From Fidelibacterota bacterium (GTDB lineage: Bacteria > Fidelibacterota > UBA2242): a stretch of 64,000 nucleotides of DNA. Below are positions 1 through 4,630 of the stretch, piece after piece (within the stretch, counting starts at the first letter, position 1; the number at the start of each line of letters is the position of its first letter). A program made the translations under genes and the position numbers. The stretch covers positions 2,360 through 66,359 of the forward strand of contig JBNGDF010000006.1 in NCBI GenBank assembly GCA_049975265.1, in the 5' to 3' direction. The notes beneath the pieces were generated by a model, which was given only the letters and a program-made list of their open reading frames with translations, was not told the DNA's origin and ran no database searches.

Positions 1-107
1 AGGAATGTGCGGATAAATCTACGGCATTTCGGCGGGAGATGTATCTGAAATCGGGCGCCGGGAATATCTGGTTGAGAAACATGCTGATGGCGAGGAGGGT
101 ATGGTAA
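1..107 (+). CDS. GIY-YIG nuclease family protein, 3' part (truncated by window edge); paralogue of 218..472
   Basis: Frame from nt 3 reads ECADKSTAFRREMYLKSGAGNIWLRNMLMARRVW* (TAA 105-107); nt 1-55 identical to 366-420. Confidence 0.9.
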   Translation, partial: ECADKSTAFRREMYLKSGAGNIWLRNMLMARRVW

Positions 108-214
108 GGCAGTGGTCTTGCCTCAGGGAGCTTTCTTCGGGAAAAACCGCCGGGTTCACGCCCTTGGGAGTTCTCTCGTAGAGACCCCTTTGGGGGAGTC
201 CCTCCACCTCCGCA
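102..214 (+). pseudogene. Interrupted, 5'-truncated tRNA-Ser(UGA)-like sequence
   Basis: With inserts 121-142 and 174-195 removed: TGGTAAGGC-A-GTGGT CTTGAAA ACCGC-CGGGTTCACGCCCT(long variable arm)-T-GGGAG TTCGAGT CCCTC-CACCTCC-GCA. This gives D-loop, anticodon arm (TGA), V arm, T arm (one mismatch) and acceptor 3' strand. Confidence 0.8.
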
Positions 215-217
215 ATC

Positions 218-472
218 ATGTATACGGTTTATGTGATCAAGAGTCAGAACCGTCTTTTTCACTATATTGGTCATACCTCAAACATAGAGAACAGACTTCG
301 GGCTCATAATCGTGGTAAAGTTCGGTCTACCAGACCTTATCGACCGTTTATTCTTATTTACAGTGAGGAATGTGCGGATAAATCTACGGCATTTCGGCGG
401 GAGATGTATCTGAAATCGGGTGCTGGGAATATCTGGTTAAGGAATATGCTGATTTCCAGGGGGGCGTGGTAA
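218..472 (+). CDS. Small stand-alone GIY-YIG nuclease (84 aa)
   Basis: VYVIKS...YIGHTSNIENRLRAHNRG...STRPYRP...AFRREMYLKSG motifs typical of the small GIY-YIG (UPF0213-like) family. Confidence 0.92.
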   Translation: MYTVYVIKSQNRLFHYIGHTSNIENRLRAHNRGKVRSTRPYRPFILIYSEECADKSTAFRREMYLKSGAGNIWLRNMLISRGAW

Positions 473-530
473 GGCGGCGGTCTTGTCTCAGGGAGGTCCC
501 TTTGGGAAAAACCGCCGGGTTCACGCCCTT
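467..530 (+). pseudogene. Second tRNA-Ser(UGA)-like fragment (D-loop to variable arm) with a 22-nt insert in the anticodon loop
   Basis: TGGTAAGGCG-GCGGT CTTG[486-507]AAA ACCGC-CGGGTTCACGCCCTT; perfect anticodon stem GCGGT/ACCGC; T arm absent. Confidence 0.75.
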
Positions 531-703: not shown

Positions 704-3700
704 GTGAAAAAAGTAACAAAAATATCAATTCTCCTATTAATATTCCTCTTTTTCGGCATTAGTGGAATCACCTTCTATTTTCTGCATTCCAGTTTTTGGA
801 AAGATGCGGTGCAGAATTTTCTCAAAGATCAACTGGCAATCCAGAACGGCTTGGAATTGCAAATCGGGGAATTACGGGGCAATCCTTTAAACAATATTAC
901 ATTTAAAGAACTCCGTTTGTTGACACCACACCATTTCCAGATTGCCGAGATCTCCGAAATTAACCTACGCTATGGTTTGGTACATTTTATATTAAAAAAA
1001 GGGGGTATCCGCCGGGTGGGCATTGAAGGAGTTAAACTAACTTTCCCTGCCTCTTTGGACTCTCTAACCAATTATTTGACTGGAACCGGATCCCAAGGAT
1101 TGCAGAGGCGGATTGTCATCGATAAGTATGAACTGGCGAACACGAATATTTTTATAGGCGATACATCTTCGGGTTCAATGGTCAGCAGTGATTGGATTCA
1201 GGGTCGGATATTTCTCAATCCGGATTCTTTGATCATCAGTGTCAATCGTGGAAATATCCACACTACCGCACTGAATGAGACGGTTTCAATGCGTGATATT
1301 CAGTTGGTAAAAAGCGGCGGTAGAATTATCATCTCGAGAGCTACTTTTTTAAACCAGTCGGCGGAGATTACCTTGGGCGGTTATGTTGGGCTGGATTCGA
1401 TCCCCGACTTTGATATAGACTTCGATATTGAAAATATACTGCTAAATGAGAGGCTGAAAAGTACGCAGGAGCTGTTCGCAGCAGATGATCGGATTAATCT
1501 GGCAGGTAAAGTTCGCTTTGATCAAACCGGATTAACTCTGACCTCATCCTTTGACGGACAATTGCTGAATAATTCACTCACACAGGGGCGCATGTCCGGT
1601 CGATATCATGGCGGTCGGTTCCGGTTTGACAATGTCTCATTTCAGTCGACGGGGCAAATTATCGCTATGGCGGTCAATGGTGACTTAAACAATTATGCTG
1701 AAGCACAGATTCGTTTGGATGGAATCGATGTTCGTACCTGGCAAAAAATTCCCTTTCACACAGCGGTAAATGGTGAAATCCGCTTGCGGTCGAAAGGACT
1801 ACTGACGGCTCCCGATACGCTGATCGCCGATTTGGACTTTAGAAACACCTTGGTTGATACGTTGCAAATTGACTTTATTGCCGGTCAACTCCGTTATGTT
1901 GACGGCGTTTTTGATATCACTGATACCGTGCGGATCGGGTTTAAGGAGACCAGTGTAATGCTCGAAGGCAGCTGTAATCCGACGGCAGATTCGCTTCATG
2001 CGACTGTCCATGTCGGCTCCGACAGCCTAGATGTTTTCTCCGAAATGGTGAACTTAAATGAGTTGCAGGGTCGTGTTGAGGGGTTCCTTGAAGCATCCGG
2101 TCGTTTCAGCAGCCCTGATTTCAGGGGTTGGCTGCGTGGTGTGGGGCTGGGGGTCGCAAACCTCAGATTCGACGAGACGATCGCCCGATTTGGATTAATG
2201 AATATTCAGGAAAGCCGCTTCGGGGATATATATATTGAGGCCAGTAACGGTGTCACGCCTTTTATTAAGGGCGGATTTCCGCTGGCTTCTCTGATTATCC
2301 GGTTTGAAAAAGACACGTCCATTATCCGTTCGTTTCGGGTGACCGGTGAAAATATGAATCTGGAATTACAGGGTAAGATGGTCAAATTATCTGAGTTATA
2401 TTTTAATAACATCAATTTTGAGCACAATGGCAATATCCTGAAGAACATTGATCCGATCCAGATTTCATCAAAAGCCGATACAATCAGCCTTGCCGAGGTA
2501 CGCTTTGCACTCAATGAAGGACTGGTTGTACTTTCCGGGGAATCGGTCAACCGGCGGGTACAGACGGCGGTAATGAATATCAGCCAATTGAAGGTAGATC
2601 CGTTAAATGCCTATCTGAAAGGTGCGCGCGGTGTCGCCGGTCTGCTGGATGGGCTGATCGTCTATACGAACACAGCAGCGACTCCGGTGGTTTATGGTCG
2701 TCTTCAGGTGGATCGGGCCAACCTGATCGGCAAGCCCTTTAATAATATTCGTCTGGAAGCCCGGTTGGTGGAGAATCGGATTGTCCTGGAAAATTTTTTC
2801 CTGGAGGATAATGATAAGGGATTCATGAACGGTTTTGGGCAGCTGGACTGTCATTTTCCCCGGACAGACAGCGGCGATTTTTTTAAAGCGTCGGATTTGC
2901 TGAATCTACAGATGCAGTTTGACAATTTTGATTTCGGGATTCTGGGATCGTTTATTCTGCCGAGATTCAATAAGGATGGGAGACTTTCAGGTAGTTTTAT
3001 GATTACCAATACGCTGGAAAATCCAGAGCTGAATTACCAGCTCACCCTGGGAGATCCGGTATTTGATCGCATTACCGGCACTACCCTGAAAGCAAACGGG
3101 ATTTATCGGGATAACAAGCTGGAATTTGCTGACATTGAACTGGTTGATTCCTACGGAAAAGCGCGAGGTTCTGGTTATCTGCCTTATGTAGTTGCATTCA
3201 AACCGCTGCAGATAAAATTCCTAAAAGATGAACCCATGTTTATGAATTTCACTCTGCATACGTCATCAGTCGAGTTTTTATCAAAATACATTGGCAGCGT
3301 GGAAAGTATTGAAGGAGATTACGATATTACCCTCAACCTCTCCGGAACACCTAATAATCCTGTGCGTTCCGGAAATTTTTCCGTTAAGAACAGCACTGTC
3401 CGGGTCAATGCTCTTGAAAATCCGGTTACCGGTTTGACCGGTAGCGCAATTCTCCAGAATAACACAATGGAAATCGTCTCTCTGGACGGGTATTTGGTAG
3501 AACCCGTTTCCGGAAGCGGTTATGACCGGTTCAGACGAGCCCTTAAAAAGTACACAGTGGACATTCTTTTTCCCCAATCCCGATCACCCGACGAACCAAA
3601 TGTCAGTATCGCCGGCTCGATTGATTTTACAACCTTTTTCAAACCGGTCTTCAATGTCCGGATGGATGGTGACAATATCTATGTCCGGACCCTGCTGGCG

Positions 3701-4630
3701 GAACAGGAGGGAATTCTGGACGGGACCTTCACAGTTGTTGGCGGTGATACCATGAGCATCGAGGGAGAAGTGGATATTAACGAATTTATTATCCGCAATG
3801 AATTCGGAGGCAGACAGGAATTAATCGAGGAGGATAAAAAACCGGGACGCGTTTACACCACAATCAATTTACATACGATCATTCCCGGCAATCTCTATTT
3901 CCGAAACAGCCAGCTGGATTGTGAGCTTGAAGGGGAGATATGGATTATTAAAAATGGACCGGAGCCCTACCGCTTTTCGGGAACCCTGGACATCCGGAAG
4001 GGTAAATTCTTTTATTACGGCTGGGAATTTGATGTGGTTCGGGGATCATTGACATTTGACCCGACCGAGTTTAATCCGACGCTGGATATCGAAGCCCGGG
4101 TTGACCTGGCGTCCTATACCGATAATAATACCACTGAATCTGTCGGCACCCCTGAGGAAGATTATGTCACAGTAATGCTTTCCGGCGACCTGCAAAATCC
4201 AACCCTTACTTTTGATTCTAACAATAAATATAATGAGAGCGATATTCTGATGTTTCTCTCCCGGACCCAGCTGGGCAGTGAGGAGGGATTGGATCAGGAG
4301 CGCATTTCCGCCGATGCCATGAACGTATTCGGGATGTATTTTGAACGACAGCTGGAGCGGAGTATCAGCCAGATCAGCGGACTCGACGAGTTTGAATTGC
4401 GCACTAAAGGCGACCTGTTTTTCAACCAGCAGCCTGATCAGTGGAGTGTCAGCCTGGGACAGAAGCTGGCACCAAATCTCTATTTTAAATATGAGCGGAA
4501 ATTATCCCTGATTGAACCGACTCAAATCTTTGGTGTCGAATATCGCCTCAATCGCAATTGTTCCATTGCCGGAGAAGTCGAACAGGACGGCTCTTACCGG
4601 ATTAATTATCTCTATAAATACCGCTATTAA
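704..4630 (+). CDS. tamB: Translocation/assembly module TamB family protein (DUF490)
   Basis: 1308 aa, N-terminal TM anchor, long beta-rich body, C-terminal DUF490-like region (G.L.F....NP.LDI.A; GVEYRL; ends YKYRY); upstream of an Omp85 gene. Confidence 0.85.
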   Translation: MKKVTKISILLLIFLFFGISGITFYFLHSSFWKDAVQNFLKDQLAIQNGLELQIGELRGNPLNNITFKELRLLTPHHFQIAEISEINLRYGLVHFILKKGGIRRVGIEGVKLTFPASLDSLTNYLTGTGSQGLQRRIVIDKYELANTNIFIGDTSSGSMVSSDWIQGRIFLNPDSLIISVNRGNIHTTALNETVSMRDIQLVKSGGRIIISRATFLNQSAEITLGGYVGLDSIPDFDIDFDIENILLNERLKSTQELFAADDRINLAGKVRFDQTGLTLTSSFDGQLLNNSLTQGRMSGRYHGGRFRFDNVSFQSTGQIIAMAVNGDLNNYAEAQIRLDGIDVRTWQKIPFHTAVNGEIRLRSKGLLTAPDTLIADLDFRNTLVDTLQIDFIAGQLRYVDGVFDITDTVRIGFKETSVMLEGSCNPTADSLHATVHVGSDSLDVFSEMVNLNELQGRVEGFLEASGRFSSPDFRGWLRGVGLGVANLRFDETIARFGLMNIQESRFGDIYIEASNGVTPFIKGGFPLASLIIRFEKDTSIIRSFRVTGENMNLELQGKMVKLSELYFNNINFEHNGNILKNIDPIQISSKADTISLAEVRFALNEGLVVLSGESVNRRVQTAVMNISQLKVDPLNAYLKGARGVAGLLDGLIVYTNTAATPVVYGRLQVDRANLIGKPFNNIRLEARLVENRIVLENFFLEDNDKGFMNGFGQLDCHFPRTDSGDFFKASDLLNLQMQFDNFDFGILGSFILPRFNKDGRLSGSFMITNTLENPELNYQLTLGDPVFDRITGTTLKANGIYRDNKLEFADIELVDSYGKARGSGYLPYVVAFKPLQIKFLKDEPMFMNFTLHTSSVEFLSKYIGSVESIEGDYDITLNLSGTPNNPVRSGNFSVKNSTVRVNALENPVTGLTGSAILQNNTMEIVSLDGYLVEPVSGSGYDRFRRALKKYTVDILFPQSRSPDEPNVSIAGSIDFTTFFKPVFNVRMDGDNIYVRTLLAEQEGILDGTFTVVGGDTMSIEGEVDINEFIIRNEFGGRQELIEEDKKPGRVYTTINLHTIIPGNLYFRNSQLDCELEGEIWIIKNGPEPYRFSGTLDIRKGKFFYYGWEFDVVRGSLTFDPTEFNPTLDIEARVDLASYTDNNTTESVGTPEEDYVTVMLSGDLQNPTLTFDSNNKYNESDILMFLSRTQLGSEEGLDQERISADAMNVFGMYFERQLERSISQISGLDEFELRTKGDLFFNQQPDQWSVSLGQKLAPNLYFKYERKLSLIEPTQIFGVEYRLNRNCSIAGEVEQDGSYRINYLYKYRY

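Follow-up and report, generated by a model that had tools for sequence, protein, structure and literature searches.

The window analyzed here is a 64,000-nt stretch of a Fidelibacterota bacterium genome (G000:C6:2360-66359, where G000 is the window's own genome and the other G numbers used below are related genomes). In its first 530 nt, dead copies of a tRNA-Ser(UGA) gene alternate with genes for an 84-aa GIY-YIG nuclease, and the dead copies carry the three 22-nt inserts with which this report is concerned (Table 1). An intact tRNA-Ser(UGA) gene lies at G000:C6:2138-2222 and ends 138 nt before the window start, beyond a scaffold gap of 100 N. The first nuclease gene (gene A) begins at G000:C6:2227, 5 nt past the intact tRNA-Ser, and is followed by the gap and then by the window. 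Its 3' part is 86% identical to residues 50-84 of the second nuclease (gene B), which starts 5-6 nt past the 3' end of dead copy A and stops inside the D-loop part of dead copy B. Because the locus borders the scaffold gap, the copy number of this array is uncertain.

Table 1. Features at the start of the window
Feature	Position in window	Strand	Description
3' end of GIY-YIG gene A	1..107	+	Open frame from the window start; 5' end upstream of the 100-N gap
Dead tRNA-Ser(UGA) copy A	94..213	+	Acceptor-like 5' end, 8-nt deletion in the D arm, two 22-nt inserts
Insert 1	121..142	+	Decayed two-palindrome module in the anticodon loop, nt 35/36; reversed relative to insert 2
Insert 2	174..195	+	Perfect two-palindrome module; T loop, C56/G57
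GIY-YIG nuclease gene B	218..472	+	84 aa, minimal Slx1/UPF0213 type; PF01541, E 4e-16
Dead tRNA-Ser(UGA) copy B	470..530	+	D loop to variable arm only; one insert
Insert 3	486..507	+	Two-palindrome module in the anticodon loop, nt 35/36; sister of insert 1
TamB-family gene	704-4630		1308 aa; follows the tRNA-nuclease array

Both copies were aligned to the intact tRNA-Ser. Outside the inserts, 66 of 68 positions of copy A, counted from the D loop onward, agreed with it, as did 41 of 42 positions of copy B. The inserts appeared as clean 22-nt insertions at CTTG^AAA in the anticodon loop (nt 35/36; ^ marks the point of insertion) and at TTC^GAGT in the T loop (nt 56/57), with no base duplicated or lost. 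The alignment thus confirmed the first-pass annotation, which had read the three strings in Table 1 as loop insertions with no target duplication. The copies carry further lesions, namely an 8-nt deletion in the D arm of copy A and the loss of both the T arm and the acceptor 3' strand in copy B. ARAGORN and Rfam found no tRNA in positions 1-800 of the window, and ARAGORN found none in copy A or copy B even after the inserts had been cut out in a script. Both tRNA-Ser copies are therefore dead and are not working tRNAs. The Rfam search of the same positions returned no group I intron or any other match. A homologue of insert 1 occupies the identical site in relatives, and insert 3 is near-identical to modules found in the D loop of a dead tRNA-Leu (G000:C2:85492) and in the T loop of a dead tRNA-Lys (G000:C64:327).

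Next, we analyzed the pairing within the inserts, each of which had been described in the first-pass annotation as two mini-hairpins with 4-bp stems and 3-nt loops. This description applied fully to insert 2, which consists of two perfect hairpins of this kind and folds as DNA at -3.6 kcal/mol. It did not apply fully to the other two: insert 3 has one T.G closing pair, and only its second hairpin folds as DNA, while insert 1 is degenerate, with one C.C and two G.T pairs, and showed no folding (DNA fold 0 kcal/mol). None of the three 22-mers taken singly was more stable than its shuffles (z -1.2 to +1.2), so the support for the structure is comparative. It comes from an alignment of 17 orthologous T-loop inserts, each 22 nt long, in which the two mini-hairpins were 100% and 98.5% paired. 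Four pairs switched from C-G to U-A on both sides (20 cells), which was reached by 0 of 500 shuffles; the earlier suggestion that structure rather than sequence is conserved was borne out by these two-sided switches. No G.U pair occurred in the four switching pairs, whereas the surrounding T stem keeps G.U pairs, and their absence suggests that it is in the DNA that pairing, or palindromy, is maintained. A single long hairpin was also considered; it was 89.9% paired and largely compatible, yet it fitted worse than two mini-hairpins. The idea that the second palindrome covaries with the T stem, judged by eye and uncounted, did not hold in the Lys and Ser(GGA) copies.

The same two-palindrome module was then sought in 41 related genomes with the pattern TYYC-N3/4-GRRA-CYYC-N3/4-GRRG, and the reversed pattern was used as a control. 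The module pattern gave 468 matches in 28 of the 41 genomes, counted as pattern matches rather than copies, and the reversed control gave 29. The highest counts were those of G008 (105), G005 (39), G021 (34), and G004 (33); G000 itself showed 6 matches, corresponding to 5 places. A T loop split by a double hairpin was matched 45 times in 16 of the 41 genomes and not once with the reversed pattern, indicating that the insert-in-T-loop pattern is more than chance. The module is a 22-24-bp repeat of two adjacent 11-12-bp palindromes that is dispersed in this Marinimicrobia family, and the new result is that the insert is a dispersed repeat and not private to the tRNA-nuclease cassettes. In G000, it sits in three loops of three dead tRNAs (the Ser anticodon loop, the Leu D loop, and the Lys T loop) and also within an open reading frame at C12:43395. 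In relatives, the majority of copies are found outside tRNA T loops. The exact pattern proposed in the first-pass annotation recovered only the three known copies in G000, and looser patterns recovered the others. The motif occurs at further places in G000 and in relatives, tRNA-type loops included, so the refuting outcome named in the first-pass annotation did not arise. The module passes down with the Ser cassette: in every Ser(UGA) cassette seen, from five genomes and several genera, the first palindrome is of the TCTC/GAGA type.

RNase P RNA was tried as a second host of such hairpins and rejected. The extra hairpin was present in 22 of 24 relatives, including genomes that have no GIY-YIG gene, and it is therefore a lineage feature that gives no indication of mobility. 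In the RNase P RNA of G000 (C19:12513-12901), it is a 23-nt hairpin in the loop between GGUGCG and GUAAGAG; it is missing in G011 and G026, and a further hairpin stands beside it in G027 and G029.

To analyze insertion sites, 70 module places were then retrieved, namely 30 automatically chosen matches (one each) and 40 listed places of G004 and G005. From these, 52-53 distinct perfect copies were extracted, among which G004 and G005 are over-represented. Six copies lay in frames open over at least 80% of the stretch retrieved, and all six were of the 24-nt form. The four gene-internal copies compared with a homologue were all exact 24-nt (8-codon) insertions. Three of the six have a homologue in G000, which in each case lacks exactly those 8 codons; the remaining three had no homologue match in G000. 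As an example, the pyruvate phosphate dikinase (PPDK) gene of a congener carries an in-frame 24-nt module at G004:C3:840-863, and the G000 orthologue at C21:17637-19520 (84% identity over 636 aa; PPDK family assignment confirmed) has an empty site. Similarly, a G000 protein with a type-IX secretion sorting tail contains a 24-nt in-frame module (8 residues; G000:C12:43395-43418), and its best G002 homologue lacks exactly those 8 residues. With a dispersed module and with filled and empty sites inside conserved genes, the first-pass proposal of a tiny element resembling repetitive extragenic palindromic (REP) sequences was upheld. We infer that the module is currently mobile and is moved in trans.

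The flanks were read in 52 copies, oriented by the module. On the left side, T stood at -2 in 45 copies and at -3 in 26; on the right side, A stood at +2 in 40 copies and at +3 in 29, and 29 copies had T at +4. The resulting consensus TTN^NAAT is the T-loop sequence T54 T55 C56^G57 A58 A59 T60. In tRNA-Ser(UGA), the anticodon loop has TTG^AAA on one strand and TTT^CAA on the other, and it is the latter strand that fits the reversed orientation of inserts 1 and 3. As tRNA loops carry the flank motif, the exact placement in these loops is accounted for without invoking loop structure. We also considered whether the module targets any hairpin loop, and rejected this: flanks were complementary over at least 4 bp in 11 of 53 copies, against 5.9 +/- 2.1 with shuffled partners, and over at least 5 bp in 5 of 53, against 2.4 +/- 1.4, so that a minority sits at the tip of a longer hairpin.

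The nuclease gene was compared in the same way. Its 11 orthologues share 30 invariant columns, including Y16, G18, R26, H30, N31, E62, and N71, and the nearest solved structures for the 84-aa protein are the single-domain 1ywl and 1zg2, and also SLX1. The protein consists of a bare catalytic domain of the Slx1/UPF0213 kind. Orthologous nuclease genes in relatives are 56-73% identical. At 10 of the 11 closest relatives' loci, the nuclease gene lies 3-6 nt behind a tRNA-Ser; at 10 of the 11, it is followed by an insert-bearing dead tRNA-Ser copy with the inserts at identical sites. GIY-YIG relatives were found in 34 of the 41 related genomes. In a wider set of 34 GIY-YIG loci from a species-wide collection, an intact same-strand tRNA ends at most 120 nt upstream in 21 and lies at most 450 nt downstream in 6 more; these are mostly tRNA-Ser genes of Marinimicrobia bins, with a few in other phyla. 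Some loci are inverted in order, with an insert-bearing full-length copy and a duplicated promoter region upstream of the nuclease and the intact tRNA downstream. One insert-free tRNA copy was kept at every locus with a long enough contig, and the tRNA-Ser(UGA) site is empty in the congener G001 and in the GIY-less relative G009. By position and by presence and absence, the neighboring gene fits a free-standing homing-type GIY-YIG cassette. A phage origin of the nuclease was tried and rejected, only 2 weak matches being found in 50,697 phage records.

Within G000, other tRNA genes and the transfer-messenger RNA (tmRNA) gene are likewise followed directly by small GIY-YIG genes. Insert-bearing dead copies, partial or full and with palindromic inserts, stand beside 13 tRNA genes: Ser-UGA, Ser-CGA, Ser-GCU, Ser-GGA, Pro, Asn, two Met, Val, Ala, Gln, Lys-CUU, and Leu-UAA. 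At several of these, no nuclease gene separates the tRNA from its dead copy. At G000:C10:44453-45100, the tmRNA gene is followed by a GIY-YIG gene between direct repeats of ~120 nt, the second of which is interrupted by a scaffold gap. Furthermore, G000 has a second, longer palindrome family (TCCCGC...GCGGGA and CCCCGCC...GGCGGG). In dead copies of tRNA-Val, Met, Ser(GCU), and Ser(GGA), these longer palindromes interrupt the T loop between G57 and A58; in dead Pro, Ala, Asn, and Met copies, they take the place of whole arms. Near-identical longer hairpins are common to different tRNA species. Their sites are C6:107275-107470, C9:74244-74440, C30:26875-26930, C56:300-412, C10:31538-31610, and C13:42840-42900.

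The surroundings of the array showed some further features. The TamB-family gene also follows the tRNA-Ser locus in congeners, and so the array lies in a conserved neighborhood. The stretch G000:C6:1-2260 is present again at G000:C30:27206-29542, a contig end, and thus occurs twice in the bin; this duplicated 2.2-kb stretch contains a tRNA-Ser(GCU), an AMP-dependent ligase-like gene, the tRNA-Ser(UGA), and the start of the nuclease gene. Several of the 31 gaps of 100 N in G000 adjoin tRNA genes or dead copies (for example, C2:85528, C9:74295, C13:42956, C10:44880, and C30:27106). Apparently, tRNA-linked repeats break the assembly.

We propose, with somewhat better than even confidence, that the three inserts are copies of this dispersed repeat, which likely inserts at the center of TTN^NAA(T) without target duplication. 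The descriptive part of this proposal is well supported, and we hold its mechanism with moderate confidence. The module would insert in the middle of the short TTN^NAA(T) motif without duplicating it, and the T loop (TTC^GAAT, TTC^GAGT) and the Ser(UGA) anticodon loop (TTG^AAA) offer this motif; the inserts would lie exactly in those loops because the loops carry it. Since insertion into a tRNA loop destroys the tRNA, the module would be seen only in spare tRNA copies. Such spares would be owed to the minimal GIY-YIG gene located 3-6 nt downstream of the intact tRNA-Ser, with the tRNA-plus-nuclease segment in tandem. By analogy with phage SegB, this tandem duplication probably arose from nuclease-induced breaks and recombination. 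The first-pass annotation had alternatively offered the insert as an immunity mark or as a means of inactivating the tRNA copy; such a role may exist, but it is not needed, as both copies are already dead through their other lesions.

What moves the module was considered in 25 genomes of the family, in which module counts rose with the number of IS200-type Y1 transposase genes (rho 0.71) and less with that of GIY-YIG genes (rho 0.40). Y1 and GIY-YIG gene counts were themselves correlated (rho 0.43), and the correlation between module and GIY-YIG counts nearly vanished after Y1 counts had been allowed for by hand. The Y1 genes are flanked by single hairpins with the CYCC-N3/4-GGRG core of the module. 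In a Y1 element common to two genomes, the right-end hairpin core ACTCC-N3/4-GGAG is that of the second palindrome of the module, and the left flanks end in TCA and TTC (two cases only); the left-end hairpins of Y1 elements, AACCCC-N4-GGGGTT, differ from the first palindrome. The only Y1 (IS200-like) gene of G000 lies at a contig end (C57:4674-5030), and on either side of it are mini-hairpins whose 4-5-bp stems are of the CCCC/GGGG and GTCC/GGAC types. An IS200/IS605-type Y1 transposase acting on single-strand DNA is thus a possible mover, to be named only tentatively. The GIY-YIG nuclease in this role seems doubtful, and we lean somewhat, though short of even confidence, toward something else. 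The first-pass suggestion that the adjacent nuclease mobilizes or recognizes the insert went undemonstrated: most copies in relatives lie off T loops, G017 has 31 module matches and no GIY-YIG match, and Y1 counts correlate better.

Several observations weigh against a freely dispersing repeat moved in this manner. The 25 genomes are related, incomplete, and not independent, so the correlations are hints, and module counts include overlapping parses of one place, such that they are not copy numbers. A double module lies at most 600 nt from only 4 of the 20 Y1 genes; G002 (7 module matches) and G010 (5) have no Y1 match, and G016 has no module despite 5 GIY-YIG and 5 weak Y1 matches. IS200/IS605 elements fix only the 5' flank, and a two-sided symmetric flank motif would be unexpected for them. 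The empty site in the PPDK gene, GGCG^AAAA, has no T at -2. No enzyme activity or excision product was observed in this sequence analysis. Moreover, 4 of the 5 module places in G000 are in dead tRNA copies, and across genera the module keeps one site in the Ser cassette with its pairing kept; this placement and this stable site also fit a cassette-bound function.

With such a function, the module would belong to the GIY-YIG cassette itself: tRNA genes would be cut by the nuclease in the T and anticodon loops, the module would be copied into the break, where it would mark uncuttable copies (target-site immunity) and disrupt homology between repeats, and dispersed copies would be off-targets. 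We consider this rather improbable, although it has points in its favor. The module occupies the identical two sites of dead tRNA-Ser beside orthologous GIY-YIG genes, 10 of the 11 closest loci have an insert-bearing dead copy, the pairing of the module is maintained by compensatory changes, and the flanks of the dead copies track the substitutions of the local tRNA while the inserts diverge. A GIY-YIG enzyme, SegB, is described as cutting a T-loop-like motif, RAWTSGAAC, in the relevant passages of PMC13096335. Furthermore, the family's two GIY-less genomes, G009 and G012 (97-98% complete), hold 0 modules, and of the 16 genomes in which the T-loop pattern was found, 15 also show a GIY-YIG match. 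Against these stand the 31 module matches of G017, which has no GIY-YIG match to the query used, and the distribution in G008, where 105 module matches go with 1 T-loop match and 13 GIY-YIG matches. The count correlation is weak, as given above; of the 25 genomes that lack the T-loop pattern, 19 carry GIY-YIG genes; many module copies lie far from tRNA T loops; and both putative cut sites are retained in the intact tRNA beside the nuclease gene. The module and the nuclease might also form a two-part homing system, composed of the palindrome pair and the 84-aa GIY-YIG nuclease, which we regard as unlikely. In that case, the nuclease would cut TTN^NAA, above all the universal T loop, and the palindrome pair would be copied in by microhomology. 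Amplification of the tRNA-plus-nuclease segment would result from these breaks as well, so that tRNA genes would be multiplied first and the spares plugged later. If this were true, no smaller homing insert than the palindrome pair would be known.

A role at the RNA level, either as mini-introns of a working tRNA or as hairpins that process or stabilize a nuclease mRNA (probably transcribed from the tRNA promoter), would agree with the nuclease frame beginning 3-6 nt past the tRNA 3' end and with a promoter-like site before the intact tRNA and no terminator-like site found in the array. It is very unlikely, since the lesions in the D arm of copy A and in the T arm and acceptor 3' strand of copy B would remain, inserts 1 and 3 split the anticodon itself, and the Rfam search found no group I intron or other match. 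The retention of an insert-free tRNA at every sufficiently long locus, the switching mini-hairpin pairs without G.U, unlike the T stem, and the modules in frame inside protein genes also speak against it. Finally, the array and its inserts as an assembly artefact of a metagenome bin would account for the 100-N gap directly before the window, the repetition of the first 2.2 kb of contig C6 at the end of C30, and the many scaffold gaps beside tRNA genes; identical insert sites in independently assembled genomes of other genera make this scarcely credible.

The proposed insertion repeat was further compared with known systems. Rickettsia palindromic elements are ~100-150 bp long and lie in frame in protein genes and also in RNA genes. 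The module shares with them the in-frame insertion into conserved protein genes and RNA genes, but it is only 22-24 bp long, and its gene-internal copies are all of the 24-bp (8-codon) form. Miniature IS200/IS605 derivatives end in two different hairpins and have neither terminal inverted repeats nor a target duplication. The module likewise has two hairpins, no inverted terminal repeats, and no target duplication, and its second palindrome shares a core with the right-end hairpin of resident Y1 elements; the left-end hairpin differs, and the flank preference of the module is two-sided. To our knowledge, every miniature IS200/IS605 derivative is far longer than the module. REP elements, according to the parts of PMC3733652 that deal with them, are likewise palindromic (20-40 bp), many-copy in some genomes, and sometimes inside genes, and a Y1/RAYT protein is their suspected mover, much as module counts here follow Y1 gene number. 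They are also described there as carrying an unpaired GTAG or CGTC tag at one end (PMC3733652). In contrast, the module is made of two short tandem palindromes with 4-bp stems and 3-4-nt loops, not of one longer hairpin; no GTAG or CGTC end tag was found in it, GTA being only one of many loop sequences, and its flanks have the form TTN^...^NAAT. The symmetric TTN^NAAT preference and the very few copies in G000 are further differences from REP. In REP systems, RAYT/Y1 genes are flanked by the repeat; here, 4 of the 20 Y1 genes have a double module at most 600 nt away, and single hairpins with a related core flank them. The module thus works like a REP or Rickettsia-type palindromic element that is much smaller and lacks the REP end tag.

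I-TevI and the Seg proteins have a separate DNA-binding domain behind the catalytic domain. The predicted nuclease here is an 84-aa catalytic domain with no DNA-binding domain, and it is chromosomal in bacteria. In its position, it resembles SegB of phages T4/T6, a free-standing GIY-YIG homing endonuclease encoded within the tRNA gene cluster (PMC13096335; PMC2330249): there, too, a GIY-YIG gene stands beside tRNAs in tandem tRNA-nuclease repeats. The passages on SegB in PMC13096335 state that it cuts inside tRNA genes and drives tandem tRNA-plus-segB amplification, and its motif is, on the other strand, the T-loop sequence. Palindromic plugs in extra tRNA copies are not described for SegB arrays in those passages (PMC13096335). 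Compared with tRNA introns (group I and archaeal bulge-helix-bulge), the inserts differ in that their host tRNA copies are incomplete even after insert removal. Among open-access papers and bioRxiv, no description was found either of minimal GIY-YIG genes linked to tRNAs or of a two-palindrome repeat of this kind, and the passages on tRNA and on Slx1-like proteins in the 2006 survey of the GIY-YIG superfamily mention no link to tRNA genes.

In the bins, scaffold gaps and contig ends are found where these repeats and the arrays of tRNA and nuclease genes lie, and the repeats and arrays conceal dead tRNA copies from tRNA finders. If the proposed insertion at TTN^NAA(T) holds, the module would be among the smallest insertion elements with a defined target, and its behavior would follow a simple rule: TTN^NAA, no duplication, and a 24-bp form in genes. 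Its target preference would coincide with the most conserved sequence of all tRNA genes, which would explain the loop "decoration" of dead tRNA copies in these and other uncultured bacteria.
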